From: Escherichia phage NHEP1
Sequence record: PQ511146.1
DNA length: 64,000 nt
Direction: 5' to 3' (one strand)
The position numbers and the translations under genes were made by a program. Below are positions 1 to 19,235 of the stretch, piece by piece; position 1 is the stretch's first letter; each line of letters begins with the position of its first letter. The notes beneath the pieces are model-generated. The model made no database searches. It had not been told where the DNA came from and saw only the letters and a list, made by a program, of their open reading frames with translations.

Positions 1-1467
1 CAACAATCACGTGGCGGTTCTGCAACAGTATCATTCCTTGCACTGGACCCGCAGATTGATGAGCTAATCCGTTTGAGAAACCCTATGACTGTTGCTTCAA
101 AAAGAATCAACACCATGGACTACTCTATAGGTATTAATAGGTCGTTTATCAACCGTGTGGCTAAGAATTTAGATTGGATGCTTGTTTCTTATAAGCACGC
201 GCCTCAACTGCATGAGGGTATCTTCACCATGTCTATGGAGGAGTTTGATGCAGAGGTTGATCGTATCGCTAAAGATGACAGTATTCCTAAAACATGGATC
301 CGAGCTAGAGATCTTGCTGTTGAGCTGATCACGCAGCGTACCGAGGTTGGAAGGCTGTACGTATACTGGACAGATGAGATGAATAGACATACACCTTTTA
401 AAGATGTAATCTATTCAAGTAACCTGTGTGCAGAAATAGCCCTCCCGACAAAAGGCTATTCAGATATGCGTAATATCTTCAAGTACGATGTTGATGATGG
501 CGAAGTTGCATTGTGCTTCCTGTCATCTCTTGTAGCTGGAAGGGTTACCCCAGAGGAGTATGAGGATGTTGCATACTACACGGTGCTTATGATTGACAAT
601 GTTATGGAAATCATGACATATCCGTATGAAAATATGGAGAGCACTGTTAAAAAACGCAGATCCATTGGGGTTGGCCTTACTAATGTTGCACATTTTATTG
701 CCAGCCACAAGGTTACTTACGGATCTCCTGAAAGTAAACAGCTTGTTCACGATCTTGCAGAGCTCCACAGCTACAGCTTGCATAAGGCAAGTTTACGATT
801 GGCAAAAGAGCGTGGTGTCTGTGAGTGGATGCATAAAACAAAATACCCGGAGGGTTGGTTACCAATCGACACCTATAACAAAGAGGTCGATAGTGTGGTG
901 AAAGATCCTTCTCTTAAGCAGGATTGGGAAGGGTTACGTAAAGAAATCATTGAAAATGGTGGGCTACGTAATAGCGTTCTTGAAGCATATATGCCTAATG
1001 AAAGCTCTTCGCTGGCAACAAACACCACTAACGGGGTTTATCCTGTCCGTGAGCACATTATCTTTAAAAAGTCGCCACAAGGTCAGGTGCTGTTTATCGT
1101 TCCTGAATATGATGAACTGAAAGAGTATTATACCTCGGCTTGGGACGTTGATACTAACGACATGATTGATATGTATGCTGTGATTCAAAAATTCACAGGG
1201 CAGGCAATCAGTGCTGACCTATATATTGATTACACCAAGTTGAAAGATGGTAAAATTTCAATGAAGGAGCAGCTGGGGTATCTTATCCGTGCTACTAAAT
1301 TCGGGATGAAGACATGGTATTACTTAAACTCTCGGGTTGGTGCTGGTGACTCTTTGACAGAGGAGCTTCACGCGAAGAAACAGGCTGAAGATGAAACCAG
1401 AAAGAACTATCCTTTGATTGCAGATAGTTCAGTTGAAGGTCCATATTGCGAAAGTTGTGCACTGTAA
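1..1467 (+). CDS. nrdA: Ribonucleotide reductase class I large subunit, 3' portion (gene begins upstream of window)
   Basis: Frame open from nt 1; active-site-like NLCAEI motif; C-terminal Cys pair CESCAL; followed by nrdB. Confidence 0.9.
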   Translation, partial: QQSRGGSATVSFLALDPQIDELIRLRNPMTVASKRINTMDYSIGINRSFINRVAKNLDWMLVSYKHAPQLHEGIFTMSMEEFDAEVDRIAKDDSIPKTWIRARDLAVELITQRTEVGRLYVYWTDEMNRHTPFKDVIYSSNLCAEIALPTKGYSDMRNIFKYDVDDGEVALCFLSSLVAGRVTPEEYEDVAYYTVLMIDNVMEIMTYPYENMESTVKKRRSIGVGLTNVAHFIASHKVTYGSPESKQLVHDLAELHSYSLHKASLRLAKERGVCEWMHKTKYPEGWLPIDTYNKEVDSVVKDPSLKQDWEGLRKEIIENGGLRNSVLEAYMPNESSSLATNTTNGVYPVREHIIFKKSPQGQVLFIVPEYDELKEYYTSAWDVDTNDMIDMYAVIQKFTGQAISADLYIDYTKLKDGKISMKEQLGYLIRATKFGMKTWYYLNSRVGAGDSLTEELHAKKQAEDETRKNYPLIADSSVEGPYCESCAL

Positions 1468-1475
1468 TTTAAAAA

Positions 1476-1495
1476 GGGGCTTCGGCCCCATTTTA
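1476..1495 (+). terminator. Stem-loop GGGGC-TTCG-GCCCC plus T-run between nrdA and nrdB (terminator or attenuator)
   Basis: Inverted repeat followed by ATTTT seen directly. Confidence 0.5.
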
Positions 1496-1506
1496 GAGGT
1501 AGAATA

Positions 1507-2595
1507 ATGGCTGTATTTAATACTGAGAACACTGCTCATAAAACTGGTGATTATCCGCTGTTTTTAGGACAGCAGATGGGGATGTACGACTCTATTAACA
1601 AAAAGTACCCACAGCTGTTTGAACTATACAAAAAACAAAAAGAACAAGATTGGGCAGAGGACGAAGTAGATTTGTCACAGTCTATTTCGGATTTCGTAAC
1701 ATGCTCAAAGTCAACTTACGATGTGATGGTGCAGACACTTATGTGGCAATGGGAGGCAGACAGTGTTGCAGCAAGATCTATCATTTGTCTGTTTTCACCA
1801 TTTATCACCAATAGTGAACTTTTCACCTTGTTGATGAAGCAGTCTGAGATTGAGGTTCTTCATGCACTAACTTACTCAGAGATTGTTAGACAATGCCTTC
1901 CTAATGCTCGTGAGATTATAGAAGAGATTCAGGAAAACCAGAACGTGCTGAGCAGATCTGGAGTTATTGTCAAATACATGCAAGAGCTTGAGGTTATTGG
2001 TGCAAAATACCGACTGGATCCTTCCAGTGTTGAAGAAGATGTTGTACGGAAATGTATCCTTAGAGCACTTTTTGCACTTTTAGCTCTAGAAAGTATTGAG
2101 TTTATTGCAAGTTTTGCATGTACGTTCGCAGTAGCTGAGCAAGGTATTTTTGTTCAAGTTGCACAACTCGTTCAAAAAATTATGCTTGATGAAATGCTGC
2201 ATTCGAAAGGCGATTTTGCTATCATCGATATCCTGCTTGATGATCCTGCATGGGAGCAAAGCTTTCTTGAGATTAAGGGTGAGTTAAAAGAAATTCTTGA
2301 CGAAGTGCGAATCAAGGAGTACGGTTGGAGTGACTATATTTTCAGCGAAGGAAGAGCAATTATAGGTCTTAACTCACCATTACTTAAAGAATGGGTTGAC
2401 TATAACTGCTCACCGATTTATGATTACTACAACATCGACAAAGACTTTGTGCCGCCAACAAAGGACCCGTTACCGTTTATGCAGGTGTGGATGAAACCTT
2501 CACTGCAACAGACGGCTAACCAGGAAATGTCTAACACCGACTACCGCGTCAACACAACTGTTAATGACGCTGAAGAAGAAATTTGGGAGTTTTAA
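1507..2595 (+). CDS. nrdB: Ribonucleotide reductase class I small subunit
   Basis: 362 aa, immediately downstream of nrdA, size and position typical of R2; no intron-like interruption seen. Confidence 0.8.
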   Translation: MAVFNTENTAHKTGDYPLFLGQQMGMYDSINKKYPQLFELYKKQKEQDWAEDEVDLSQSISDFVTCSKSTYDVMVQTLMWQWEADSVAARSIICLFSPFITNSELFTLLMKQSEIEVLHALTYSEIVRQCLPNAREIIEEIQENQNVLSRSGVIVKYMQELEVIGAKYRLDPSSVEEDVVRKCILRALFALLALESIEFIASFACTFAVAEQGIFVQVAQLVQKIMLDEMLHSKGDFAIIDILLDDPAWEQSFLEIKGELKEILDEVRIKEYGWSDYIFSEGRAIIGLNSPLLKEWVDYNCSPIYDYYNIDKDFVPPTKDPLPFMQVWMKPSLQQTANQEMSNTDYRVNTTVNDAEEEIWEF

Positions 2596-2598
2596 TAT

Positions 2599-2877
2599 AT
2601 GAGCTGTGAAAAATCTTTTTTCATTATCATCTACGGTAAGGATAACTGCCCACATTGTGTAAGAGCAAAAGAATTTGCAGCAAGCAAAGGTATACCTTTC
2701 GTATACAAGACGCTTGGTGAAGGATACACAAAAGAAGAGCTTATTGAGAAGTGTAGTCCATTTGTTCCCAGAACGTTGCCTCAGATCTTCTTGGAAAGCA
2801 ACCTTGATAGTGTCCACATCGGTGGTGCTGACGATTTCATCTCTTTTGTTAAGAATGGTTTTGGAGAGAAAAAGTGA
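2599..2877 (+). CDS. Glutaredoxin/NrdH-like thiol-disulfide oxidoreductase
   Basis: 92 aa with CPHC redox motif near N-terminus; sits between nrdB and nrdD. Confidence 0.7.
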   Translation: MSCEKSFFIIIYGKDNCPHCVRAKEFAASKGIPFVYKTLGEGYTKEELIEKCSPFVPRTLPQIFLESNLDSVHIGGADDFISFVKNGFGEKK

Positions 2878-4997
2878 AAATTGTAAAACGGGACGGTAGA
2901 GAAGAGGTCTATAACGGAGTTAAGGTAATCAAGGCGGCAGAGTCCGCCTTACTTGAGTCTGGGCATACTGAAGAAGAAGCTTACCGGATCGCTTGTACGG
3001 TTAATGAAGTTGTTGCCAACAATCTACCAACCGACCAGTGCACGATCTCTGTAAAAAATATCCATATCCTTGTTGAAGATGCTCTTATGGATATGGGTTT
3101 AAAATGTGCAGCCAGAGAATATATCCAGTATAGACAGACAAGAGATAATAACAGAGAGGCAGGTGGAAAACTGCTTGCAGATATTAGTGGCTTCTTGGAT
3201 CGAACTTGTGATGAATTTACAAAAGAAAACGCAAATAAGCCCACTAATCATGTACATACTCATCGTGACCTGCTTGCAGGTATCCTTAGCAAACACCTTG
3301 CATCAACACAGATACTGCCAGATCGTGTCTCCGAAGAGCACAACAAGGGATTCATCCATGTGCATGATCTTGACTATCTGATCAGTCCGTTAACAAACTG
3401 CTGTTTGGTGAATTATCCGGATATGCTGGAAAACGGATTCAACATTGGCAACGCCCATGTCAGTAAGCCGAAGTCAATAGGGGTTGCAACAACAATCCTC
3501 AGCCAAATCTCTAGTGCAGTAGCTAGTGCTCAATATGGTGGTCAGACCATGAGCCATATTGATCATTACCTGGCGCAGTATGCTGAAGCAACCTATGAGA
3601 AGAATCTTAAATTTTGTCAGGAACATTGGTTGCCGGATGCTGAGACTGTTGCAATGCAAATGACGGATAAAGACGTGTTTGATAGTATGCAAACTTTGCT
3701 ATACCAAATCAATACGTTAACTTCTGTCAACGGGCAAACCCCATTCATCACATTAAGTTTAGGACTGGATACCTCAATCTTTGGTAGAATGATTACCAAA
3801 AACTACCTGAAAGTCCACAAAATGGGTCTTGGTGAAGAACGTATCACACCTGTGTTCCCTAAGGTGCTGTTCTTCCTGGAGGAGGGTATCAACATGAACC
3901 CTGGGGATCCTAACTATGATTTGAAACGATTAGCTCTGGAATGCTCTGCAGAGCGGATTTATCCTGACTTCGTATCTGTACCACTAAATAGAAAAGTGAC
4001 AGGTTCAACAGAAGGTAATGTCACAAGCATGGGTTGCCGGAGTTTTCTTAGCAAATACAATGACTTGGAAACAGGAGAGGAGAAATACCTTGGCAGATTT
4101 AACTTAGGTGTTGTTAGCCTTAACCTACCAATGATTGCGGCAAAAGCTAAAACGGAAGGTGTTGATTTCTTTGCAGTTCTTGACGAGTACTTGGATCTGG
4201 CATACGAGGCTCACCTTGTAAGGGTTAACCGTCTAAAAGGAACAAAGGCAGGGCAGAACCCCATCATGTGGTGTGAAGGAGCCCTTGCTCGCCTGGATCC
4301 TGAAGAGAGCATTGATAAACTCTTCTATGACGGGTATGCTTCCATAAGTATTGGGTATATTGGTGTGTATGAAACCTGCCAGATTTTAGGCAGAGAGGGA
4401 GACAAGTCCTTAGCTCTTGGGATCCTTCAACACATGAAAGACGCTTGTGATCGGTACAAAAAAGAAAGTGGTCTGGCATTCAGCTTGTACGGCACTCCTT
4501 CAGAGAGCTTGTGCTATAAGGCTGCAACATGTCTAGATCGTGAATACCCTGAAGTGTTGAAGCACGAGCACGAATACCTTACCAACAGTTTCCACCAACC
4601 CGTGTGGATCAATAGCTCACCTTTTGACAAGTGGAAGTATGAGGAAGGTTTTGCTATGATCTCTTCTGGCGGCAACATTGGATACATAGAAACACCTAAC
4701 CTGAAAAACAACCTGGATGCTTTGGAATCCCTTGTCGATTTCGGGTATAAACACATTATGTATTTTGGTATTAACCAACCTGTGGATAAATGTCTTAAGT
4801 GCGGATTCTCTGGTGAGTTCAGTGCAACAGCTAAAGGCTTTGTATGCCCAGAGTGCGGAAACCATGAAGAGGGAACGATCAGTGTGATTAGACGTGTATC
4901 TGGGTATCTGTCCAGTCCAAACTCCCGCCCTTACAATAAGGGTAAGCAGGCTGAGGTTATAGAACGGGTTAAGCACTACGGAAGTTGTGGTTGCTGA
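2874..4997 (+). CDS. nrdD: Anaerobic ribonucleoside-triphosphate reductase (class III)
   Basis: 707 aa; C-terminal zinc ribbon CLKCGF...CPECG and glycyl-radical motif RVSGY. Confidence 0.9.
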   Translation: MKIVKRDGREEVYNGVKVIKAAESALLESGHTEEEAYRIACTVNEVVANNLPTDQCTISVKNIHILVEDALMDMGLKCAAREYIQYRQTRDNNREAGGKLLADISGFLDRTCDEFTKENANKPTNHVHTHRDLLAGILSKHLASTQILPDRVSEEHNKGFIHVHDLDYLISPLTNCCLVNYPDMLENGFNIGNAHVSKPKSIGVATTILSQISSAVASAQYGGQTMSHIDHYLAQYAEATYEKNLKFCQEHWLPDAETVAMQMTDKDVFDSMQTLLYQINTLTSVNGQTPFITLSLGLDTSIFGRMITKNYLKVHKMGLGEERITPVFPKVLFFLEEGINMNPGDPNYDLKRLALECSAERIYPDFVSVPLNRKVTGSTEGNVTSMGCRSFLSKYNDLETGEEKYLGRFNLGVVSLNLPMIAAKAKTEGVDFFAVLDEYLDLAYEAHLVRVNRLKGTKAGQNPIMWCEGALARLDPEESIDKLFYDGYASISIGYIGVYETCQILGREGDKSLALGILQHMKDACDRYKKESGLAFSLYGTPSESLCYKAATCLDREYPEVLKHEHEYLTNSFHQPVWINSSPFDKWKYEEGFAMISSGGNIGYIETPNLKNNLDALESLVDFGYKHIMYFGINQPVDKCLKCGFSGEFSATAKGFVCPECGNHEEGTISVIRRVSGYLSSPNSRPYNKGKQAEVIERVKHYGSCGC

Positions 4998-5060
4998 TAC
5001 TTGACAAAAGTCACAAGGATGTGGCATATTGTTGTCACACAGTAAACTAGGAGGTGCAAT

Positions 5061-5177
5061 ATGTCTACAGGTATTTATAAAATTTGCAAGTGTGGTTGTC
5101 ATTGCAATCTTCGTTGGTGTAAGGCACTGGACGATTTTATTTGGCATTGTCCTAAATGCGATGCGGAGTACGTATGA
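5061..5177 (+). CDS. Small Cys-rich zinc-ribbon-like protein (38 aa), stop overlaps nrdG start
   Basis: AGGAGG 6 nt upstream of ATG; translation MSTGIYKICKCGCHCNLRWCKALDDFIWHCPKCDAEYV; ATGA overlap with nrdG; below the 60-aa track cutoff. Confidence 0.5.
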   Translation: MSTGIYKICKCGCHCNLRWCKALDDFIWHCPKCDAEYV

Positions 5178-5647
5178 ATATTGTCGGGTATACAGAGATA
5201 TCTTACACCGAGGGGCCAGGCATTAGGACAGCTTTGTGGGTATCTGGGTGCCCACACGCTTGTCCTGGTTGCTTTAATCAAGCATTTTGGTCAAAAGATA
5301 AAGGAAGAGAGTTCACCGAAGAAGATTTGCAGAAAATTTTGTCGGATTTAGACAATGAATCTGTATGCGGTATTTCTTTGCTTGGTGGAGAGCCTTTGGC
5401 TACGTATAATGAGCCCGGTATTATTAAACTTATGAGGAGAATTAAGGAAAAGTTTGGTGACAAGAAAACTATTCTTGTGTATACTGGGTTCACATTTGAG
5501 CATATCTCTAGTGATGTTCTTGAGCTGGCTGATATCATCATTGATGGCAAGTATGTAAAAGATTTACCAACAAAGAAACCATTCCGAGGCAGCGATAACC
5601 AAAGAATGTTTAAAAAGGTAGCAGGCGGTTGGGTTCAGGTTGACTAA
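5174..5647 (+). CDS. nrdG: Anaerobic RNR activating enzyme (radical SAM)
   Basis: CPHACPGC (CxxxCxxC) cluster motif; start moved to ATG 5174 (MNIVGY). Confidence 0.85.
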   Translation: MNIVGYTEISYTEGPGIRTALWVSGCPHACPGCFNQAFWSKDKGREFTEEDLQKILSDLDNESVCGISLLGGEPLATYNEPGIIKLMRRIKEKFGDKKTILVYTGFTFEHISSDVLELADIIIDGKYVKDLPTKKPFRGSDNQRMFKKVAGGWVQVD

Positions 5648-5650
5648 TCG

Positions 5651-5680
5651 TTGACAAAGCTTTGGTAAGTTGGTTATAAT
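5651..5680 (+). promoter_or_regulatory. Sigma70-like promoter TTGACA-N18-TATAAT
   Basis: Consensus hexamers seen at 5651-5656 and 5675-5680. Confidence 0.5.
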
Positions 5681-5709
5681 TATCGTAATGAAAGCAGAGG
5701 AGGTGCCAA

Positions 5710-5823
5710 ATGGCTAAAAAAGCCTTGAAGAAGGCGTACAAGAAAGAGATTGCGCTTGAGCTTAAGAAAAAACACAAGCGTGAAAAGAAATATCATGAAG
5801 ATGAAGAGGGGGTGCAACAGTGA
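5710..5823 (+). CDS. Small lysine-rich protein (37 aa)
   Basis: GAGGAGG 6 nt upstream of ATG; MAKKALKKAYKKEIALELKKKHKREKKYHEDEEGVQQ; stop overlaps GTG start of next ORF. Confidence 0.4.
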   Translation: MAKKALKKAYKKEIALELKKKHKREKKYHEDEEGVQQ

Positions 5824-6170
5824 CACAAGAGCGTATTGATTTAGCCAGTAAGTTTGTAGATCTCATTTTGCCACGGTTGGTTACTCAACATGCAGACGCT
5901 ATTTCTACTAATCTTGATGGCTTACGCCTAATGCTGAACCGAACAGATGACCCACGTATTCGGGCCGATTTAGAGGCCTCTGCCAACAAACTGGAAAAGT
6001 TCTTGCAAGTAGACACGCAAGAAGCCTTGCACAAGATTATGGTGGAAGGTTTCTCTAAAGAATTCACCGTTAAAGAGCTTAAGGAGCTGATCCGCCAAGA
6101 AGAGATGAATATCCGAGTTCAGGCTGTTGCAAGCAGCATGGAAGCGGCTATTGAAAAACTGTTGCAGTAA
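5820..6170 (+). CDS. Hypothetical protein (GTG start)
   Basis: Track ORF, 116 aa, coupled to upstream small ORF. Confidence 0.5.
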   Translation: MTQERIDLASKFVDLILPRLVTQHADAISTNLDGLRLMLNRTDDPRIRADLEASANKLEKFLQVDTQEALHKIMVEGFSKEFTVKELKELIRQEEMNIRVQAVASSMEAAIEKLLQ

Positions 6171-6208
6171 AAGTCCTTGACACATCTCAATCTGAAAGGA
6201 GTCCCAAC

Positions 6209-6997
6209 ATGGGTCGAGCTAAAGAAACAAAACGCATGCGTGATGAAGCCAGAGAGGCTCGCAAATCTGATCGCCTGCGTAAGGCTGCTGAGAAATTTGC
6301 TGACGAACGAGAGCACACAGCTCCAGCTCTCCGACCAATGAACAAAAAGCAGCAAAAGTATCTTGATTATCTAGGATCGCGTAAGATTATTATTGTAAAC
6401 GGTGTGTTTGGATCCGGTAAGACATTCATGGCATCCGCATATGCAGGTGATCTTTTGCGTAAGAACGAGATTGATAAGATCATTGTTGCACGCCCTTACG
6501 TTCAGACAGGAAAGACTTCAGGGTTTAAACCTGGAAACGCAATGCAGAAACTGTGGCCCTATCTCCGAAGCATGATGGACACGATTTGTCGTCGTGTTGG
6601 CAAAGGTGCTTTTGCCGCAATGCTGGGAGATGGTCAGAACAGTCGTATCGAGATCTGTGAAGTTGAAAGCATTCGTGGTCGTAGTTTCGATGAGCGGTGC
6701 TTTGTCCTAATTGACGAGGCACAGCAAACTAACCCTGAAGAAATGTTGTCAATTATCACAAGGATCTCTGATCAGGCCACACTTGTAATCATGGGTGATA
6801 ATAGCCAACGTGACATCCCTGGTAAGTCTGGACTTGCATGGGTAACGGATTTCTTTACTCGTCATCCAGATCCTGAGGTTGGGATGATTAGCTTTGATAG
6901 CCCAGATGATGTCGTTCGTTCCGGGTTGGGTCGTCAGATTGCACTCAATCTTATCGAGGATCGTGCAAATCATATTTGGACCCCTGTTTCCGAGTAA
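6209..6997 (+). CDS. phoH: PhoH-like ATPase
   Basis: Walker A GVFGSGKT and PhoH-like downstream motifs; RBS AAAGGAG upstream. Confidence 0.9.
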   Translation: MGRAKETKRMRDEAREARKSDRLRKAAEKFADEREHTAPALRPMNKKQQKYLDYLGSRKIIIVNGVFGSGKTFMASAYAGDLLRKNEIDKIIVARPYVQTGKTSGFKPGNAMQKLWPYLRSMMDTICRRVGKGAFAAMLGDGQNSRIEICEVESIRGRSFDERCFVLIDEAQQTNPEEMLSIITRISDQATLVIMGDNSQRDIPGKSGLAWVTDFFTRHPDPEVGMISFDSPDDVVRSGLGRQIALNLIEDRANHIWTPVSE

Positions 6998-7042
6998 TAC
7001 AGAAGGGTGGTTATTCCACCCTTAAATATCTAAAACGATTAT

Positions 7043-7070
7043 TGACAAACAGATAAGTTTTAGGTATTAT
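7043..7070 (+). promoter_or_regulatory. Sigma70-like promoter TTGACA-N16-TATTAT
   Basis: Hexamers seen upstream of 7096 ORF. Confidence 0.4.
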
Positions 7071-7095
7071 CGAACAAAACAAGGAGAATGACAGT

Positions 7096-7407
7096 ATGGC
7101 TACAATACAAGAGAGACTGAATAAGATATACTGCCTATTTGTCTATAACGGTGAGACAATTTTGGCAAACAAAGGATACAAGAATGTGTGGATTAAGGAC
7201 AGCGGTGGTAACATAATCAACTTGGCGCTACTACGTGAGCGAAGACACCGATTCTTCACTGAGTCCCGTGTTATTGAAAGCAACACATTTTACAGAACAG
7301 GGGATAAAGTAATTGTTGACAATGACACGTGGTATGTGGTAGACTGGCAATCGTTGACCTGTGATGCTTCTGACAATTGTAAGTATTCCATGGTAATTGC
7401 TAAATAA
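7096..7407 (+). CDS. Hypothetical protein
   Basis: Track ORF 103 aa with AAGGAG RBS. Confidence 0.5.
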   Translation: MATIQERLNKIYCLFVYNGETILANKGYKNVWIKDSGGNIINLALLRERRHRFFTESRVIESNTFYRTGDKVIVDNDTWYVVDWQSLTCDASDNCKYSMVIAK

Positions 7408-7468
7408 AGGCAAATGAGAATCAGGTTTAAATAGATCGCTTTTAACTTTCCAACATTAAGGACCTCAC

Positions 7469-8518
7469 ATGAATTTAACACCTCGCAGCACCATGGTACA
7501 CGGCATGAAAGAAAAACAGAACGGCTTCGAACCGATGAGTAATAAAATGTTTGGTATGCCTGGTGGTATTATGGAAACATACAGCTACCCAACGCCAGTT
7601 GTTGACCACGTGCTTTATATTGACGATCTTGAGGATTTGCAGGATCATATGTCCCGTTTGCAAACAATTCGTATGGCACAGCCGGAAGAAAGTATCCGTG
7701 TAATTGTTAACAGCCCTGGTGGTTGCGTCCACATTGCCATGGCGTATTTGCAGGCATTCCGCGAGTCTCAGGCAAGCGTTGTTGTACACGCTGAAGGGAT
7801 GTGCTGCTCAGCAGGAACAATCTTATGGCTGGGTTGCAAAGAACGAACTGTGGCTCCGGACACAGAGTTTATGTTCCACTACTATCAAGGTGGCACCTAT
7901 GGCAACGGTGTGAACATGAATACTCAGGTCAACTACTGGAAGAAACGTTTTGAACGCCTGATCGAAAAATACTACGGTGGGGTTCTGACAGAAGATGAGA
8001 TCGCATCCATCACGGCTGGTGGAGAAGTGTGGTTGGATGGAGAAGAGCTGGCAGCTCGAACTGGTGCTATCATTCTGGACGATGAAAACATTCAGCGCAT
8101 TCAGAATGGGCAGAAACCGAAAAAGCTTTTGGCAAAAAGTGATGAAGAAGGTGTGCTAGGCGAAGCAGGCCTGCCAGAGATTCACCAATGCACATCTCTG
8201 GACGAGCTGGTTCACGCTGTTGAGTCTGCAAAAGCAAATGGTATGAAAGGTGATGTTCACACTGTGTTCCTGAATCTGCAGATGGAGAGTGGTGAGACCG
8301 TTAAGATTGCACTGGGTGAGATTACCTCGGAAGATCTGCAGCGATTCTCTGTGGTAGAGCTTCAGGACATTTTGTCCCAATTGAAAACCACCCTGAACGG
8401 AGGTGAAGAAGTTCAGGTTAAAGATAAGACCCGCAAGCGTCTGGTGGACAATATTATTAAAACAGCAAAAGAGCTCAATGAAAAAATCCTGGGCGCAGGA
8501 ATTATCGAAGAAGCTTAA
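7469..8518 (+). CDS. ClpP-family serine peptidase-like protein with C-terminal extension
   Basis: VNSPGG motif, candidate Ser in MCCSAG and His in MFHYYQGG spaced as in ClpP. Confidence 0.65.
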   Translation: MNLTPRSTMVHGMKEKQNGFEPMSNKMFGMPGGIMETYSYPTPVVDHVLYIDDLEDLQDHMSRLQTIRMAQPEESIRVIVNSPGGCVHIAMAYLQAFRESQASVVVHAEGMCCSAGTILWLGCKERTVAPDTEFMFHYYQGGTYGNGVNMNTQVNYWKKRFERLIEKYYGGVLTEDEIASITAGGEVWLDGEELAARTGAIILDDENIQRIQNGQKPKKLLAKSDEEGVLGEAGLPEIHQCTSLDELVHAVESAKANGMKGDVHTVFLNLQMESGETVKIALGEITSEDLQRFSVVELQDILSQLKTTLNGGEEVQVKDKTRKRLVDNIIKTAKELNEKILGAGIIEEA

Positions 8519-8530
8519 ACATTAATCTTA

Positions 8531-8556
8531 AAGCCCTCTTCGGAGGGCTTTTATGA
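8531..8556 (+). terminator. Rho-independent terminator
   Basis: AAGCCCTC-TTCG-GAGGGCTT followed by TTTAT. Confidence 0.6.
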
Positions 8557-8569
8557 TCTGGAGATTTGC

Positions 8570-9103
8570 ATGACTTGTGCTAGAAAACCTGACGAACAAC
8601 GTAACGCCTATGATGAATATGTGACACCAGAGTGGTGTGCAGAAGGGTTGTATGACCTCATTCCGTTCCCAGAAGATTGGACCTATTTGGAGCCTTGCAG
8701 GAATAGCGCCTCAGGTGTGTTCTACTCCCGTATGCCGTTAGGATCTGCATGGGGAGAAATCCAAGAAGGTGTTGACTATCTGAATACAGAATACAACCAT
8801 GTTGACTGTATTATCACCAACCCGCCGTACAGCCTGGCTCGTGAGTTTGTGGACAAGGCGTTGAAAGATGCCGACGTAGTTATTATGCTTTTGCGTCTTA
8901 ATTTTCTGGAAAGCAAGGCCAGATTTGAATGGTGGCTTGATAATGCCCCTACCACTGTGATCACAATATCTAAGCGTCCATCATTCCAATCGAATGGCAG
9001 AACTGACGGGCAAGCATATGCATATTTTGTGTGGGACAAGAAGAACCGTTTAGACCTACCACCATTTATGTGGTTGGCACCTCCGGAGGCAGATTTGAAA
9101 TGA
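8570..9103 (+). CDS. Small phage Dam-like DNA N6-adenine methyltransferase
   Basis: NPPY catalytic motif (ITNPPYS) and N-terminal W..TPEW-type motif typical of small phage Dam proteins. Confidence 0.65.
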   Translation: MTCARKPDEQRNAYDEYVTPEWCAEGLYDLIPFPEDWTYLEPCRNSASGVFYSRMPLGSAWGEIQEGVDYLNTEYNHVDCIITNPPYSLAREFVDKALKDADVVIMLLRLNFLESKARFEWWLDNAPTTVITISKRPSFQSNGRTDGQAYAYFVWDKKNRLDLPPFMWLAPPEADLK

Positions 9104-9384
9104 AAATGAGTGCTAAGGACAAGTTGCACCAGTTAGCGCTAAAACGTCCTGTAACTCTCCCTGACGAGCTTAACTCCATTTATGATGCGATTGTAGGGGA
9201 GATACAAAATAAGGCGTTAGCAGGCTTTCTGGGATGCGGATTTTCGATAAATCTTCCATCACACCTCTCAGACTACTTCCCACACATCGTTGGGGATTTG
9301 AGGGCAGGAGGTCTGCAGGTGGATGTTGTTGGCATCTCCCCGGAGAAAAATAACACAGTTGCCTACTTGACAGTGACCTGGTAG
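9100..9384 (+). CDS. Hypothetical protein
   Basis: ATGA start/stop overlap with preceding gene; start moved to ATG 9100. Confidence 0.5.
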   Translation: MKMSAKDKLHQLALKRPVTLPDELNSIYDAIVGEIQNKALAGFLGCGFSINLPSHLSDYFPHIVGDLRAGGLQVDVVGISPEKNNTVAYLTVTW

Positions 9385-9419
9385 TAGTGTATTTTGTTTT
9401 CAACAAGAGGGGGTCATCT

Positions 9420-9659
9420 ATGTATAAGTCATTTTCAATTTACTCAAGACAGGCAAAACACTACACAGAGATTCTGATCACTCAGAAAAAATCTGTGGAA
9501 GGTGAGTGGGAATATCATCATAAAATGTTGCGTCCAGACTGGGTTTTTGATAGGCTTATTGCTATGATCCCTCTTGGAGAAGTATACCCTCTGACAGGTC
9601 ATAGGGATGCTTGGGATTTAATTGACTATATAGATTCATTTAAGGAGCCTAGATTATGA
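9420..9659 (+). CDS. Hypothetical protein
   Basis: In-frame ATG at 9420 preceded by GAGGGGG. Confidence 0.5.
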   Translation: MYKSFSIYSRQAKHYTEILITQKKSVEGEWEYHHKMLRPDWVFDRLIAMIPLGEVYPLTGHRDAWDLIDYIDSFKEPRL

Positions 9660-10054
9660 AGATTGAGATTACTGAAGAAGGTAAGAAAGTCTCTGGTAAC
9701 TATGCAACAGTTATCCGTGATGTAATGTTCGAAGTCACTAAGATTGGCACATCCAAGGTTGGTCAAACGGTGAGTGTGCAAGGTAATATCACCTCAGGAG
9801 AGAAGATATTCATCGTGATAAAAGGCCAGGATCCTGTAGAAGGGACAGTTGGACGTGGTGGATACTTGTGTATCTCTGAAGAGCCTCGCATGCTAGTTGC
9901 TGATAACTCCACAGGTAAAAAGCGAGTATGTAACACGGACGAGGTGATGATTATCTATCCAGTCAACCCGGATGATCCGGCAACATGGATTGTGGGAAAT
10001 GAAATCTTCTCTTTAGAAGAGTTATCCTTCCCAGCTCCGCGATCTGTTCAGTAA
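9656..10054 (+). CDS. Hypothetical protein
   Basis: Track ORF 132 aa, ATGA overlap with upstream gene. Confidence 0.55.
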   Translation: MKIEITEEGKKVSGNYATVIRDVMFEVTKIGTSKVGQTVSVQGNITSGEKIFIVIKGQDPVEGTVGRGGYLCISEEPRMLVADNSTGKKRVCNTDEVMIIYPVNPDDPATWIVGNEIFSLEELSFPAPRSVQ

Positions 10055-10093
10055 TAATTTATCTTACCAGGGACGGTAAAAGCAGGAGGTAGC

Positions 10094-10327
10094 ATGAAAG
10101 TTAAATTTCTTACAGATTTAGGGTACCCTTCCTTGGTTGACTGCGTTGGTAAAATTGTGGAAGCAAAACGGCTATCTGCAAACGATAATGTTGTCATGGT
10201 TAAGGGAAAAGATTTACTAGCTGCAGGTGCAGAGTCTGGCAGGATCTCTCCTGACTATACGTATTACCTGTCTTTAAGTAATCTACCAGAACGAGGCGGC
10301 AAAGGCCTTGAAGTTGTGGAGGAGTGA
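10094..10327 (+). CDS. Small acidic protein, paralog family A (MKVK...KG.DL.AAGA...VVEE)
   Basis: Shares N-terminal MKVK, KGxDLxAAGA core and acidic C-terminus with 13749, 13966, 15838, 16106 ORFs. Confidence 0.55.
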   Translation: MKVKFLTDLGYPSLVDCVGKIVEAKRLSANDNVVMVKGKDLLAAGAESGRISPDYTYYLSLSNLPERGGKGLEVVEE

Positions 10328-10869
10328 CAGGTATGCTTCTGATTAACTGGGAAGACCTCTATGGGGACAAAGACCCTGTTGCGTTTGTTGATCGTAGGTG
10401 GAGATACACTGAAGAACAACTGGCTGCAAAAAATTTAACTGCAAAACGCAGAAAGATCATCCAGTGCAAGTACAAATACGCACAGTTTGCTGCAAAAGTG
10501 TCTCCACAAATCGAGAGTTTTGTACTTAAATTGTATGACGAGTACCTCAAATTCAAATTGGATTTTGTACAGGTATACCGTGCACAGGTACGTCCAGATA
10601 CCAACATCTGTAGATGGAAGGTTGTTTGTGATGGTAAAGATTTGCCGCTCAGTTTGACAATTGAGTGGCGTTGGGGGTATCATGAGTGCGGTTTGTGTGA
10701 TATTTGGGATGTCATTGTAGATCCTGCTAAGTACCTGAACACAGAGGAGCTGGAATATATCAATAAGGTTATTCTAGATATGTTTTTCAGCTACACCCGT
10801 GAAAACTCTGAGAAAGAACGGGATAATTTTCTTGACACCCTCGGCAACCACCTGCAGTGTACAATTTAA
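10324..10869 (+). CDS. Hypothetical protein
   Basis: Track ORF 181 aa. Confidence 0.55.
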   Translation: MTGMLLINWEDLYGDKDPVAFVDRRWRYTEEQLAAKNLTAKRRKIIQCKYKYAQFAAKVSPQIESFVLKLYDEYLKFKLDFVQVYRAQVRPDTNICRWKVVCDGKDLPLSLTIEWRWGYHECGLCDIWDVIVDPAKYLNTEELEYINKVILDMFFSYTRENSEKERDNFLDTLGNHLQCTI

Positions 10870-10887
10870 CCTACAAAGGAGGAGCCA

Positions 10888-11124
10888 ATGAGTATAGATG
10901 CTGTGCTGATAGGTTACCTGGTAGTAGCTGTTATAACAGCAGTAATCTTGGCAGGTATATGCATCGTGTCTACACGAAGGGTGAAGTTTGATGATTTTAT
11001 CACCATCATCACTGCTGCGCCCTTTTGGCCTGTTGTTATCTTCATCGTAATAATGTGCCTAGTTGATTACCACAAGAATACCCGTAAGGAGAAAAAGGAG
11101 AGTAGGGATGGATACCGCACCTAA
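10888..11124 (+). CDS. Small membrane protein
   Basis: Hydrophobic N-terminal segments; RBS AAGGAGGAG. Confidence 0.5.
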   Translation: MSIDAVLIGYLVVAVITAVILAGICIVSTRRVKFDDFITIITAAPFWPVVIFIVIMCLVDYHKNTRKEKKESRDGYRT

Positions 11125-11239
11125 AACTGTTTATACTGTTCTTAAAGAGATTGCGTTCTACGCAGATCTTAGCCGGGCACCTTTATGGGAAAAGAATATG
11201 TATTTAAAATGGTGCGTGAAATTAGAGGGGGCCTTCTAA
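11108..11239 (+). CDS. Small ORF (43 aa)
   Basis: AAGGAGAG RBS 7 nt upstream; TAATG overlap with next small ORF. Confidence 0.3.
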   Translation: MDTAPKTVYTVLKEIAFYADLSRAPLWEKNMYLKWCVKLEGAF

Positions 11240-11358
11240 TGTTTCAAGCCATGTTTATTGAAATGCTCTCTGGGGTATTACTGCTGGTAGCCATTTTGGG
11301 TGGCGCGGCACTGATGTATAATTATCTTGAAAAAGGAGACAGTAATGACAAAAAATAA
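11239..11358 (+). CDS. Hydrophobic micro-protein (39 aa)
   Basis: MFQAMFIEMLSGVLLLVAILGGAALMYNYLEKGDSNDKK; overlaps next gene by 14 nt; junction sequence repeated at 18635-18659. Confidence 0.35.
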   Translation: MFQAMFIEMLSGVLLLVAILGGAALMYNYLEKGDSNDKK

Positions 11359-11530
11359 ATCCTTAGAACAGGCTGAAAACCTTCTCCACGAGCTGGTAAA
11401 GGAGTGGAAAGTTGAATACTCAGATTTTAATGCAAGAGAGGGGGAAGATTATTGGCCTACGGAGCGCTCAGAGGGAGAGTGGTATCAAGATTTCATAGAA
11501 TGGCTATATCAGACGTGCGATGAGGGGTGA
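11345..11530 (+). CDS. Hypothetical protein
   Basis: ATG 11345 with AAAGGAG RBS; track start 11327 is TTG. Confidence 0.45.
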   Translation: MTKNKSLEQAENLLHELVKEWKVEYSDFNAREGEDYWPTERSEGEWYQDFIEWLYQTCDEG

Positions 11531-11988
11531 CGATGTTTGTTAAATATGTAAAAACGTGCCTCAACAACCTTGGTAGAGAGCATTGGTACACACTGCTTGA
11601 AAAAGGAGAAATTTTAACAAAATCTGGAAAGATAACTTTGATACCTTTGGACGATAAAGACCCGTCACTACTTGTCATAGATGATTACGTTACAGGTGTG
11701 TCGTACGAGGTATCTGTGGAGAGGTTAATACGCAGATCTGGAGGTCCTTATGACCGAAGAGAGTATGTTTTCGATTCCGTTACAGAGAAGGAAGATCCGT
11801 CCCTGATGTTTAGGATGGTAATCAGGGATATGAAATCATCTATAAATAGGATCGTAAAGGACATTAAGGAGCCTTTTAGGGTAAAAGTTAAGAAGTTTTT
11901 TGATTCTAAGATCAACATACTCGCCGTTGTGCTGGGCGTAATTCAACTTCTGTTAATTTTGCACTATTTTGAACTGTTGTTTAAGTAA
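11527..11988 (+). CDS. Hypothetical protein with C-terminal hydrophobic segment
   Basis: Track ORF 153 aa. Confidence 0.5.
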   Translation: MTMFVKYVKTCLNNLGREHWYTLLEKGEILTKSGKITLIPLDDKDPSLLVIDDYVTGVSYEVSVERLIRRSGGPYDRREYVFDSVTEKEDPSLMFRMVIRDMKSSINRIVKDIKEPFRVKVKKFFDSKINILAVVLGVIQLLLILHYFELLFK

Positions 11989-12048
11989 TGTGCATTATGG
12001 CACAAAGGATGTGCCATAATTAAATAAACTAAGAAAGAGGTAGAGAGA

Positions 12049-12396
12049 ATGTCAAAGATTAAATCGATATTAATGTGGGTGTCTGTTGTAGCTTTTGTAG
12101 GATACTGGACTTGGGAAACTGAATTAAAAGATATTGGGTATACCAGCCTTGAGAGTAAGGCGTGCATTGGCATAACCGATGCATTCAGGCAGAATGCTAT
12201 GGATCACGAATGTGTCGATGCAGATATAGATGAGAAACTGTCTAAGGACAAAGATTTTTACCATGGTCATGCCTTGCTTGATAGTGGTGACACTGTAGAA
12301 TTCTGGTCGTGGTTCCGTGAAGATGGGACAATAAAGACAGCAGTAAAGATTTCCAACAAAGAGTTGATGCTGTTGCAGCAGAAGGAGGTGCAATGA
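12049..12396 (+). CDS. Hypothetical protein with N-terminal signal/TM segment
   Basis: Track ORF 115 aa; AAAGAGG RBS. Confidence 0.5.
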   Translation: MSKIKSILMWVSVVAFVGYWTWETELKDIGYTSLESKACIGITDAFRQNAMDHECVDADIDEKLSKDKDFYHGHALLDSGDTVEFWSWFREDGTIKTAVKISNKELMLLQQKEVQ

Positions 12397-12680
12397 TCTG
12401 GATATCCTACGCTGATGGCACCATGCTGTATACTGCAGGTACTAGATATGAAGTTAAGGAGGACGATAAAAAATTTATCGTAAAAACATTTGACAAGGAC
12501 GACAACCTTTTGCTAGAATTGACTTACAAGGTTGGGGATGTATCTAGCATCCAATTGGATTGCGGTCATAAAGATAACCCGCTCAAGAAACCTGGGGTAG
12601 GTAAAGCTTCAGAAGAACGCCTGTCTCGTATTGCAGAAAGCGTTTCTGCACAAAAATCTAAAAAGGGGACTAGAAAATGA
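12393..12680 (+). CDS. Hypothetical protein
   Basis: Track ORF 95 aa. Confidence 0.5.
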   Translation: MIWISYADGTMLYTAGTRYEVKEDDKKFIVKTFDKDDNLLLELTYKVGDVSSIQLDCGHKDNPLKKPGVGKASEERLSRIAESVSAQKSKKGTRK

Positions 12681-12871
12681 AAAACTTACATTTTAACACT
12701 TATTACTACAACACTTTGAATGATTTGTATTATATTGTTCGAAGTAAAAATCCTGAAACAGTCCTATTCTGCCGCGAACCTTTCAAAGGAGAGGAAGTGG
12801 AGTCTGAGATGAATGTTAGCCAGATTACCTCTTTGTTGCTCTCAGGTGCAATGGAAGAAGCAATATTCTAA
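12677..12871 (+). CDS. Hypothetical protein
   Basis: Track ORF 64 aa. Confidence 0.4.
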   Translation: MKNLHFNTYYYNTLNDLYYIVRSKNPETVLFCREPFKGEEVESEMNVSQITSLLLSGAMEEAIF

Positions 12872-12889
12872 ACCAGGCGGGAGGGTTTT

Positions 12890-13075
12890 ATGAAGCACTA
12901 TTGTCTGTCTGGTAGGATGGGGGTGGATTGTGATTGGGTTTTCTTAAAACTTGTCAGCGTTCGAGAGTCCATTCCAGAGGAAGAGCAAGAAAGTGAGCTG
13001 ATGTCATGGATCAACTATTACGGCAACACTTTCCGGTATGTCAAAATGGAAGAGCTGCCAAACGAGGATGATTGA
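12890..13075 (+). CDS. Hypothetical protein
   Basis: Track ORF 61 aa. Confidence 0.4.
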   Translation: MKHYCLSGRMGVDCDWVFLKLVSVRESIPEEEQESELMSWINYYGNTFRYVKMEELPNEDD

Positions 13076-13170
13076 TTATGGTAGCATCAATATTAACGTT
13101 TATGGGTGGCGTGGCATTCGGATTCATTCTTTGTCTGTTTATAGTTATTATGGCTATGCGAGGCTGAATT

Positions 13171-13455
13171 ATGAAACTGTTCGAGTGGTTTAAAAAGTTT
13201 AAATACCAGGCTGTTGCTGTATCGAAATGGACCGTCCGCTGGGTGGACGATGATGGAACACAAATTCCTGGTGATCAGGATACCGGATACTGGGTTATGA
13301 TGGAGAACGGATTTGGGAAAAGGAAGTTTAAATGTGCTGGCGCTCCTACTCTTTTAAATGTTAGGAATGTACCAGGGTACAGCACTATGGTTGTTTGGGA
13401 GCTATCCGGTGTTCCTCCTGCCAATGTGCAATATCTGCCAAACCCAGAAAAATAA
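13171..13455 (+). CDS. Hypothetical protein
   Basis: Track ORF 94 aa. Confidence 0.5.
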   Translation: MKLFEWFKKFKYQAVAVSKWTVRWVDDDGTQIPGDQDTGYWVMMENGFGKRKFKCAGAPTLLNVRNVPGYSTMVVWELSGVPPANVQYLPNPEK

Positions 13456-13467
13456 AAGGAGAAGATA

Positions 13468-13752
13468 ATGAGCAATGGTGTCAGCAACAGTGCTGCAGAG
13501 TTTAAAGTGATCTGTAAAGGAACTTATTGGATAGTGAAACAGAAGGTGTACCTATTCGGTTTCATACCGTTTTGGCAGAGATTTTGCTGGGGAGCTAACG
13601 AGCTTAAGAGATACGCCACCAAGGCTATGGCACTTATTGGTATAGCTGAATACATTGCTGCCAGGGACAGAGAGGGGAAAACTTGTTACTACACTGCTGA
13701 CGAGATTCGTAACAGTGTTTACGTTCCACAACCGCCTGAGGGAGACCGTTGA
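13468..13752 (+). CDS. Hypothetical protein
   Basis: Track ORF 94 aa with AAGGAG RBS. Confidence 0.5.
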   Translation: MSNGVSNSAAEFKVICKGTYWIVKQKVYLFGFIPFWQRFCWGANELKRYATKAMALIGIAEYIAARDREGKTCYYTADEIRNSVYVPQPPEGDR

Positions 13753-13976
13753 TGAAAGTTAAAGTTTTAGATTCAAGCTTCTATATTGGTCAGGAGCCCT
13801 TAGTGGGGAAAGTGTTTACCGCTATCCCTAACGAAGATTATCCTGACCTTTTAAAAATAAAAGGTGCAGATCTTATTGCCGCTGGTGCATCCCAGGAATG
13901 CTTTGACAGTCAGTGGACCTACAACTTTGCCCTAGGAGAGGATGTGGAGATAGTGGAGGACGATCATGAAGGTTAA
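13749..13976 (+). CDS. Small acidic protein, paralog family A
   Basis: MMKVKVLDSSFYIGQ...IKGADLIAAGA motif. Confidence 0.55.
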   Translation: MMKVKVLDSSFYIGQEPLVGKVFTAIPNEDYPDLLKIKGADLIAAGASQECFDSQWTYNFALGEDVEIVEDDHEG

Positions 13977-14220
13977 AATTCTTGACTCTAACGTCTACTT
14001 GGGACAATCCTTCCTGAAAGGAAAGGTCGTACCTGCTGTATACTTCGAAGGGTTGCCGTGGGACGATCCTGTGCGGCAAAATCACAGCCATGTAGGCCAC
14101 AATGTGGTGTTCATCTTGGGATCAGACCTGATCGCGGCTGGTGCCCCGGAATATTATTTCGGAGAGGACTTGTATTATGCCTTTGGGGCAGGGTCAGATG
14201 CGGATATTTTAGAGCTGTGA
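13966..14220 (+). CDS. Small acidic protein, paralog family A
   Basis: MKVKILDSNVYLGQ...GSDLIAAGA motif; tandem to 13749. Confidence 0.55.
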   Translation: MKVKILDSNVYLGQSFLKGKVVPAVYFEGLPWDDPVRQNHSHVGHNVVFILGSDLIAAGAPEYYFGEDLYYAFGAGSDADILEL

Positions 14221-14232
14221 TGGGGAACTATT

Positions 14233-14631
14233 GTGAAAAATAAACTGTTCAAAGTTACAATGAAAATTCGCGGAGCTTGGAGCGTAAAGCAAGGGCGTAT
14301 CCCCGAATTTGAGAAAGACTTCTACGTAGTCTCCACCTCGGAGGAGGCTGCATGCTGGCAGGCTGGCTATGCCTATGCAAGAACCTGGTACGAAGGATAC
14401 CAGACTGGTGGCTATGACGGAGAAATTATCAGCAAGGGTGTAGAAGAAATTAATGTGTTGACAAGTGAAAAAGTTTTTGTTATAGTGCATCCAGATTCCA
14501 GAGTGAAGCATTACTGGAATGCCAGAACAAAAACTTGGACACCGTTTGCAGATTCTGCTACACCACTTTTAAGCCAGAAAGCTCTTGACTCTGCTCCAAG
14601 CTACGGGGTTGTTGAAGAAAAGCTAAACTGA
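14233..14631 (+). CDS. Hypothetical protein, paralog family B
   Basis: C-terminal half similar to 16438..16833 (HP.S...YYW.....W TP motif). Confidence 0.55.
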   Translation: MKNKLFKVTMKIRGAWSVKQGRIPEFEKDFYVVSTSEEAACWQAGYAYARTWYEGYQTGGYDGEIISKGVEEINVLTSEKVFVIVHPDSRVKHYWNARTKTWTPFADSATPLLSQKALDSAPSYGVVEEKLN

Positions 14632-14648
14632 AACAGTGAGGTACCAAC

Positions 14649-14939
14649 ATGATGGATTTAGTTCTGGACACTGATAACACCGGAGCGTTTAAAAAGGATG
14701 GTGCAATAAGCATTGACCAATTCTTCCCTGCCAAGATTGACTCAAAATGGACCTACAAGTTTGACGGTGAGATCTTCGCAAATGATGAGAAGGTCGTGGA
14801 TGCTGTAGCCATTTTAAACGCTTTAGGGTATGACCCTGTGAACTCATTGATCAAGGATCCTGTTGAGTTTGCAGAGTATGTTCGTAAAATGGCAGATCTT
14901 GCAGTAGATATTTTAAAAACTATCGACAACAAGTTGTAA
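14649..14939 (+). CDS. Hypothetical protein
   Basis: Track ORF 96 aa. Confidence 0.5.
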   Translation: MMDLVLDTDNTGAFKKDGAISIDQFFPAKIDSKWTYKFDGEIFANDEKVVDAVAILNALGYDPVNSLIKDPVEFAEYVRKMADLAVDILKTIDNKL

Positions 14940-14945
14940 AAACTG

Positions 14946-15001
14946 TTGACACAACGCTTCAGATTTAGTATCATTGTTTTCAAAGAGGGTTGGTTCCCTC
15001 T
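14946..15001 (+). promoter_or_regulatory. Sigma70-like promoter (TTGACA-N17-TATCAT) followed by 5'UTR stem-loop AGAGGG/CCCTCT
   Basis: Hexamers at 14946-14951 and 14969-14974; hairpin 14984-15001; precedes HPF-like gene. Confidence 0.5.
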
Positions 15002-15020
15002 TCTTTAAAAGGAACACATT

Positions 15021-15338
15021 ATGCAAATTGAAATCACTGGCAACGTAGAGATCACTGAAGGTATGGTGTCTTTCATTTCCAACAAAATGTCCAAGCTGGA
15101 GCGTTTGCACCCCTCTGCCAACTATGCACGTGTGAGTGTAAAAGTTGAAAATGATCACCAGGAAGTTATGGCTTTCATTTTTGACAATTCTGGGAAAGAA
15201 GTTATCGCCAAAGCTAAAGGCAGCGATGCTTACGAGGCAACTGACCGTATGGTGGATGTTGCAGCACGCCAGTTGGCTAAATGCGGTGGAAAGAAAGGTA
15301 AGGGAAAAGGTAAAGTAAAGATTGACTTTTTAGATTGA
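15021..15338 (+). CDS. Ribosome hibernation promoting factor / RaiA (S30Ae family) homolog
   Basis: MQIEITGNVEITEG...KLERL...VKVE...ARQLAK pattern matches bacterial HPF/YfiA; Lys/Gly-rich tail. Confidence 0.8.
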   Translation: MQIEITGNVEITEGMVSFISNKMSKLERLHPSANYARVSVKVENDHQEVMAFIFDNSGKEVIAKAKGSDAYEATDRMVDVAARQLAKCGGKKGKGKGKVKIDFLD

Positions 15339-15475
15339 GGTGCTACAATGGGCATGATTAAGAAATTAGTCCCAAATGTAGAGATTGCATGCTTTGAAAT
15401 TATGTTTGCAATCGCAGTTGTAGTTAATGTGTTAGGTTACGGCTATTAATATCAAATAATTGAGGAGACCTCTAA

Positions 15476-15745: not shown

Positions 15746-15837
15746 TCCTGCTTGGGTTAGCATACTTTCCTCTACAAGAAAGGTTTGTAATTATTTGTGG
15801 GAAAGGAATCCCCATCTCTTACCAGAGGTGATACTAT

Positions 15838-16101: not shown

Positions 16102-16105
16102 GAAT

Positions 16106-16833: not shown

Positions 16834-16842
16834 TTTTATGCC

Positions 16843-16880
16843 ACACAGGTGTTGACAACACCAACCCTGTGTGCAATAAT
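16843..16880 (+). promoter_or_regulatory. Promoter TTGACA-N17-AATAAT embedded in a 12-bp-arm palindrome
   Basis: CACACAGGTGTTG...CAACCCTGTGTG inverted repeat overlapping the -35. Confidence 0.4.
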
Positions 16881-19231: not shown

Positions 19232-19235
19232 TGAC

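Follow-up and report, generated by a model that had tools for sequence, protein, structure and literature searches.

The 64,000-nt stretch of phage DNA analysed here (the window) carries, directly behind a host-type promoter, an open reading frame (ORF) of 37 codons that almost certainly encodes a real, translated and functional protein. This small protein, 37-52 amino acids (aa) in length across relatives, is the product of a core gene in a whole phage subfamily, one that includes rV5, PVP-SE1, Mydovirus and relatives and has found use in biocontrol and therapy work. At its N terminus it carries a motif conserved like the PhoH enzyme, and it has an obligatory partner, which together make it a well-defined and cheap experimental target; the case also illustrates that very short phage ORFs can be under strong selection. 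As the best explanation, we consider it reasonably probable that an early, basic, single-helix protein works with its co-translated, acidic partner on a conserved polyanionic target.

Identity of the gene and its surroundings

The feature is already known: it is gene 118, with promoter P118, of phage rV5, published in 2013. The rV5 GenBank record (DQ832317) lists 'Sigma70-type promoter; P118', followed by ORF 118 (37 aa) and ORF 119 (116 aa). Kropinski et al. 2013 (PMC3606486) give P118 as TTGACAAAGCTTTGTTAAGTTGGTTATAAT in Table S4B, one spacer base away from the sequence of the window, and in Table S3 assign gene 118 a length of 37 aa, a mass of 4482 Da and a pI of 9.8, with no homologues or function; they located the promoter by visual inspection, without experimental mapping. 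The micro-protein of the window is identical to that of rV5 ORF 118, the order nrdG - P118 - 118 - 119 - phoH is the same (DQ832317; PMC3606486), and apart from the one promoter spacer base nothing substantive differs. We use the rV5 names, gp118 and gp119, for the two proteins. Related records mostly call the ORF a hypothetical protein; in PVP-SE1, the annotation of genes 144 and 145 notes their similarity to the rV5 pair.

Over 2 kb around the micro-ORF, identity to Escherichia phage S127 BCL3 is 98.7%, and a further comparison gives matches at 90-99% in 120 rV5-like records; on these matches, the source is an rV5-type (Vequintavirus) E. coli myophage. The features considered here are as follows.

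2874-4997: nrdD, intact, 707 aa in the window
5061-5177, plus strand: Cys-rich 38-aa ORF between nrdD and nrdG
5174-5647: nrdG, immediately 5′ of P118
5651-5680, plus strand: sigma-70-type promoter, equivalent to rV5 P118, 12/12 consensus match
5697-5703, plus strand: Shine-Dalgarno (SD) sequence GAGGAGG, six nt before the ATG
5710-5823, plus strand: micro-protein gene (rV5 ORF 118), 37 aa, 4.48 kDa, pI 9.7
5767-5772, plus strand: A6 run within the Lys stretch, length polymorphic in database relatives
5806-5812, plus strand: SD sequence GAGGGGG for gp119, inside the 3′ end of the micro-ORF
5820-6170, plus strand: partner gene (rV5 ORF 119), 116 aa, phrog_7650 E 2e-55
6209-6997, plus strand: gene for a PhoH-like ATPase (phoH), from the ORF and annotation in relatives
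7042-7070, 10654-10683, 30020-30047, 35861-35888 and 40974-41002: examples of other TTGACA-N16-18-TANNNT sites

The gene order in the window is thus nrdG, micro-ORF, partner and phoH, followed downstream of phoH by a 103-aa ORF and a ClpP-like gene. Because a terminator scan was blank before the next promoter at 7042-7070, phoH probably belongs to one transcription unit with 118 and 119.

Promoter P118

The sequence-only reading had described a consensus promoter, TTGACA-N18-TATAAT, and such a promoter is present as claimed, with a -35 element TTGACA (5651-5656), an 18-nt spacer and a -10 element TATAAT (5675-5680) that together match the consensus at 12/12 positions. P118 begins 4 nt past the nrdG stop codon and lies 30 nt upstream of the ATG. 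Its -10 element has no TGn extension, and transcription would start near 5687-5688.

P118 is the only 12/12 match within positions 1-20000. Four perfect TTGACA-N16-18-TATAAT sites occur in the whole window (0.03 expected), and the relaxed pattern TTGACA-N16-18-TANNNT is found 33 times across positions 1-64000, with 2.8 expected. Up to about 21 kb most of these sites are on the plus strand, and between about 23 and 49 kb most are on the minus strand, so that their strand tracks gene orientation. Since the counts are far above expectation, P118 is a regular member of a set of host-type promoters of this phage, with about 30 in the window. A dense set of such promoters has been reported for rV5. 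Sigma-70-like promoters were described as rV5's own promoter type (PMC3606486) and likewise as that of a Certrevirus phage, where they are concentrated in the presumed early region (PMC7344957). Our literature search found no transcription-start data or transcriptome for any Vequintavirinae phage.

Comparison with relatives points the same way. In an alignment of six Vequintavirus sequences with the metagenomic lineages L015 and L016, the spacer changes in sequence within Vequintavirus but keeps its 18 nt, and neither hexamer changes, as would be expected of a functional promoter. TTGACA-type promoters stand at the equivalent position in L015, L005, L018, L020 and L021, and, of the 11 full-length lineages examined, six keep the promoter in position. 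The promoter is missing from the other five (L011, L017, L019, L022 and L023), in which the ORF follows nrdG or grx directly after a short gap; it is thus dispensable for gene 118, which appears, from this gene arrangement, to be often but not always the first gene of its transcription unit. Taken together, we regard P118 as very probably a functional promoter.

Some Mydovirus/Seunavirus-like relatives, L005 (2272-2300), L018, L020, L021 and L019, carry a stable GC-rich hairpin just 5′ of the SD sequence (z -2.5 to -4.9). In the four promoter-bearing lineages it lies between the -10 element and the SD sequence, at the 5′ end of the inferred transcript; in the promoterless L019 it follows the upstream stop codon. 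The hairpins differ in sequence but share the same shape and have no U-tract, and they could be 5′ mRNA-stabilizing stem-loops or protein-binding sites. The 5′ untranslated region (UTR) of the window contains no such hairpin.

Gene 118 encodes a conserved basic protein

The micro-ORF runs from an ATG at 5710 to a TGA at 5821-5823 and translates as MAKKALKKAYKKEIALELKKKHKREKKYHEDEEGVQQ. Both the GAGGAGG sequence and the 37-codon ORF were found as the sequence-only reading had them, whereas its count of 15 Lys/Arg among 37 residues needs correction: there are 13 (12 Lys and 1 Arg), and 15 is reached only by adding two His. A GGAG-type SD motif occupies the same place in all 11 lineages examined, and in phage Murica a ribosome_binding_site is annotated at this SD of the orthologue. 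The protein consists of a conserved N-terminal basic helix (residues 1-19, 5710-5766), a basic run and an acidic tail, with a net charge of +10 over residues 1-27 and -4 in the tail.

With 89 ORFs of at least 25 aa overlapping positions 3000-9500, a length of 37 codons is by itself uninformative, and it is conservation that marks this ORF as real. We treat the overlapping ORFs (5680-5826 and 5610-5777 on the minus strand, and 5750-5839 in another frame of the plus strand) as incidental, since conservation follows the reading frame that opens at 5710. No second copy of the motif was found elsewhere in the window.

Variation in the A6 run is seen among database sequences. Variant P0004 has two extra Lys at this run, and P0005, present in three contigs of up to 138 kb, is frameshifted after ELKK, retaining the conserved N terminus and gaining a new tail that extends past the start of the partner. 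These variants could reflect sequencing error or real length variation.

To define the family, an exhaustive profile search with the 116-aa partner covered 1.8 billion proteins and returned only 16 representatives; we examined the region upstream of the partner in ten divergent representatives and in the genus Mydovirus, 11 lineages in all. A small ORF lies directly 5′ of the partner homologue in each of the 11, encoding 37-52 aa in the ten full-length copies, with the remaining copy ended by the end of its contig. A profile search with the small proteins gave 43 clusters; every one consists of free-standing proteins of 32-52 aa, and none has the sequence as a segment of something longer. The micro-protein occurs in every rV5-like genus returned by the phage-collection search. 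The phages concerned infect Escherichia, Salmonella (PVP-SE1 and SSE121), Cronobacter, Enterobacter, Klebsiella, Raoultella, Proteus and Erwinia.

Residues 1-19 follow the motif M-[SA]-K-[KR]-x-L-[RK]-K-A-Y-x-K-E-[LIM]-A-[LM]-x-L-[RK], in which position 17 is mostly E or A; the window has MAKKALKKAYKKEIALELK. Among 36 sequences, M1, K8, E13 and A15 are invariant, and L6, A9, Y10, K12, L14, L18 and R19 are conserved in at least 89%. Mean pairwise identity in the same genomes is 73% for residues 1-19 of gp118, 34% for the partner and 71% for PhoH; for so small a gene, such conservation is unusual. Over these 19 codons, synonymous change is saturated (pS 0.79) and third positions vary at 18 of 18, while pN is 0.19 and pN/pS 0.25. 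Synonymous sites are thus saturated and the amino acids kept, which places the selection on the peptide and not on the RNA. The comparative-genomic check that the sequence-only reading had named came out strongly positive, in 11/11 lineages and at 73% identity over residues 1-19. The net charge of the whole peptide is +5 to +7 in every lineage, and that of the partner 0 to -10.

The C-terminal tail comes in three types, short acidic, EEELxQLVADAAAR and DFGF...W, each of which tracks its partner clade. The PHROG 7670 profile matches gp118 with E 5.4e-20 (72 bits), aligning residues 1-37 with profile positions 1-37 of 46; PHROG 7670 is a family of function unknown, as is PHROG 7650 of the partner. 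Pairs of these two families, such as genes 144/145 of PVP-SE1 and CPT_Mydo_133/132 of Proteus phage Mydo, share with the window the N-terminal motif, the position 5′ of the PHROG 7650 partner and the synteny from ribonucleotide reductase to PhoH. The gp118 of the window is the short Vequintavirus form, 37 aa and Lys-rich with a short acidic tail, whereas the 46-52-aa forms of PHROG 7670 have a second conserved segment, EEELxQLVADAAAR, or the DFGF...W tail. Unlike the window, genera with the 46-52-aa forms have an endolysin gene between the partner and PhoH.

A truncated 28-aa copy, comprising the N-terminal motif and the basic run only, is present in Salmonella phage NINP13076 (MZ326168; lineage L025, 2001-2087), where the next gene is of the PRPP-synthase family and is not the partner. 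This 161-kb record gives three matches to the peptide, which suggests a rearrangement or an assembly artefact.

Searches of Pfam, NCBIfam and PDB sequences gave no significant match for gp118 or gp119, and no function for gp118 was found from any known family, fold or paper. The resemblance of 'ELALALR' to the ubiquitin-interacting motif of proteasome subunit S5a (E 1.2) and that of 'FRKAYQREL' to Slr1964 (E 0.9) are at chance level, and we rejected both. Our literature search turned up neither a transcriptome nor ribosome profiling nor any functional work on gene 118, and no non-virion proteome of a Vequintavirinae phage; 'gp118' and its protein accession are absent from the rV5 virion mass spectrometry data, which were searched by name and accession. 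Trypsin would cut so Lys-rich a peptide to pieces, and its absence from tryptic data therefore says nothing.

The partner gp119 and translational coupling

The protein gp119 is acidic (net charge -4, pI 5.2) and is predicted by AlphaFold2 (AF2) to form four helices (pLDDT 92.5); its homologues in the family are 114-152 aa, acidic and helical. The 118-119 pair lies between ribonucleotide-reductase genes and phoH in the 11 other lineages as well. The GTG start of gp119 (5820-5822) overlaps the TGA of the micro-ORF (5821-5823), so the 4-nt GTGA overlap with the following gene (5820-5823), another element of the sequence-only reading, is confirmed. In the relatives, stop and start share 1 nt (TAATG or TGATG) or 8 nt, or lie 7-9 nt apart. 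In L017, L018 and L020 the ATG of the partner stands 7-9 nt after the stop codon and has its own GGGG/GGTGA motif, and an SD-like motif of the partner's own is present in every lineage examined; in Murica, a ribosome-binding site is annotated at the site equivalent to GAGGGGG. Judging from the overlap, gp118 and gp119 are likely co-translated.

The mRNA across this region (5687-5860) folds no better than shuffled controls (z = -1.4), which led us to reject an RNA element in the ORF or the 5′ UTR, and the scan found no terminator between the micro-ORF and gp119. Because the partner has its own SD sequence and the mRNA has no significant structure, the micro-ORF is not merely a coupling device. 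A hairpin, GCCTT-GAAG-AAGGC at 5722-5735, was scored as a minus-strand 'terminator' and was rejected, as its codons vary in other lineages.

In Escherichia phage Mangalyan (OR449013.1, 91281-91628), the gp119 homologue is named 'calcyclin-binding protein'. Foldseek shows just a 35-residue match to the dimerization helix of Siah-interacting protein (E 3.9). This lends no support to the name, which was probably transferred automatically from a short helical similarity.

Structure and proposed role of gp118

The AF2 model of gp118, based on a 35-sequence alignment, is a single helix with pLDDT 88-89 over residues 1-20 and a weakly predicted tail. On a helical wheel, K4, K8, K12 and R19 would form one basic stripe, with L6, A9, Y10, L14, L16 and L18 on the opposite face. 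Eisenberg hydrophobicity averages -0.38, and over residues 2-21 the hydrophobic moment reaches a modest 0.19-0.28, which means that the helix is not cleanly amphipathic. The charge of +10 over the first 27 residues and the predicted helix are compatible with nucleic-acid binding, one of the two roles raised by the sequence-only reading; our family and PDB searches returned no homology to any known nucleic-acid-binding family.

In the scheme that we favour, E. coli RNA polymerase would produce a gp118-gp119-PhoH transcript, early or middle, from about 5687. The micro-protein would be translated efficiently by virtue of GAGGAGG and its AAA-rich start, and ribosomes would pass to gp119 at the GTGA overlap; through this hand-over, gp118 and gp119 would be made together. 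The smaller protein would then serve as a basic subunit or adaptor of gp119, its hydrophobic face (L6, A9, Y10, L14, L16 and L18) docking on a protein, and its K4/K8/K12/R19 stripe, with the following K/R run, touching a conserved polyanion, most likely nucleic acid. The variable C-tail, which differs by clade along with the partner, would contact gp119. Taken singly, the chances appear evenly balanced that gp118 works together with gp119, and nucleic acid as the target of gp118 is possible but doubtful. That gp119 is far less conserved than the N-terminal motif of gp118 argues that the motif mainly contacts something else, perhaps a conserved host component or a conserved phage enzyme.

A broader proposal, which we put forward tentatively, is that the 19-residue basic helix (MSKKTLRKAYQKELALELR and its variants) is an uncharacterized effector motif common to all rV5-like phages that engages a slowly evolving polyanionic machine of the infected cell and has the fast-evolving, acidic gp119 for a chaperone or adaptor. 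Candidates for this machine include RNA, the ribosome, RNA polymerase and the nucleoid. If the proposal is true, few core phage proteins with a conserved molecular target of their own would be smaller than gp118.

Alternative explanations

The other role raised by the sequence-only reading, a leader peptide, is not supported. A regulatory upstream ORF of this kind would exist only to start or set gp119, its peptide being functionless, and would fit the GTGA overlap, the weak GTG start of gp119 in this phage, the tight adjacency of the two genes in all lineages and the strong SD sequence of the micro-ORF. A pure coupling device, however, would not constrain its peptide, and residues 1-19 are 73% conserved despite saturated synonymous change (pN/pS 0.25). 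Moreover, gp119 has its own SD sequence at 5806-5812, a gap of 7-9 nt separates the two genes in L017, L018 and L020, there is no significant mRNA structure to unwind (z = -1.4), and neither a regulatory codon run nor a terminator/antiterminator is present. We therefore regard this explanation as very improbable. Leader peptides of the trpL or ermCL type are very short ORFs that head an operon; gp118 resembles them in length, in heading an operon and in the overlap of its stop codon with the next start, but differs in that its peptide is under purifying selection and in having no regulatory codon runs, alternative RNA structures or terminator. A lysis-associated role, with gp118 as a holin, antiholin or membrane-active helix, is suggested only by the genes next door in other genera: an endolysin gene, GH19 or M15, follows the partner in Mydo, PVP-SE1, L017, L018, L019, L020, L021 and L023. 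In the window and all Vequintavirus relatives, by contrast, phoH comes next and the endolysin gene is not adjacent. Neither gp118 nor gp119 has a hydrophobic stretch long enough for a transmembrane segment, the mean hydrophobicity of gp118 is negative (-0.38) with a low hydrophobic moment, and the promoter is of the host-RNA-polymerase type of the early, DNA-metabolism region; a lysis role is scarcely credible.

Two further explanations take the peptide itself as the active element. In one, gp118 would be a host take-over peptide whose N-terminal helix binds and modulates a conserved Enterobacterales machine (for example RNA polymerase, the ribosome, a protease or a nucleoid protein), with gp119 a chaperone or an unrelated neighbour. 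An early promoter of the host type and a motif that is near-invariant across phages of Escherichia, Salmonella, Klebsiella, Proteus, Cronobacter, Enterobacter and Erwinia agree with this, and the partner drifts to about 25% identity while the motif stays, as a host target that itself evolves slowly would lead one to expect. We nevertheless judge it unlikely: take-over and anti-defence genes are usually accessory and variable, whereas gp118 is encoded by a core gene in fixed synteny, and the searches found no similarity to any characterized phage inhibitor. In the other, gp118 would bind nucleic acid alone, without gp119, as an RNA binder like those with arginine-rich motifs or as a small histone-like DNA coat. 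Its basic helix and acidic tail, the +10 charge over residues 1-27 and the predicted helix would suit this role, and the 5′ hairpin that Mydovirus/Seunavirus-like relatives have in the gene's own mRNA could be an operator. Against it, the hydrophobic residues L6, A9, Y10, L14, A15 and L18 point to a protein contact, the 5′ UTR of the window is hairpin-free, the basic residues are nearly all Lys, and there is no homology to known binders, which leaves a stand-alone binder improbable. The lambdoid N proteins, early proteins whose genes are transcribed by host RNA polymerase, have an arginine-rich motif in a short N-terminal basic helix. The short basic helix and early-type host promoter of gp118 recall them, as does the hairpin in the same transcript in some relatives; gp118 differs in having no sequence similarity to them, 12 Lys against 1 Arg and, at 37 aa, no further domain, and the window has no nut/boxB-like hairpin and no known antitermination context.

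Other features of the region

The ORF at 5061-5177 (MSTGIYKICKCGCHCNLRWCKALDDFIWHCPKCDAEYV) contains eight Cys with a zinc-ribbon-like spacing, and its stop codon overlaps the annotated start of nrdG (ATGA, 5174-5177). A 38-aa ORF is called at this position in the 68%-identity lineage L011 (2269-2385) too, and S127 and JeffSchatz have it as a hypothetical protein; the product may be another conserved micro-protein, perhaps tied to the anaerobic reductase. In the metagenomic lineages L015 (10-2235) and L016 (1-2235), nrdD is split by inserted ORFs, including an HNH_3 endonuclease, an arrangement reminiscent of homing-endonuclease or intron insertions.

Farther downstream on the plus strand, a 177-aa ORF (8570-9103) contains IITNPPYSL, with the NPPY motif typical of N6-adenine DNA methyltransferases. 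The ClpP-like protein (7469-8518, plus strand), at 349 aa, is far longer than bacterial ClpP; it has a long, acidic, helical-looking C-terminal extension, and its gene is syntenic 3′ of phoH in all related lineages.
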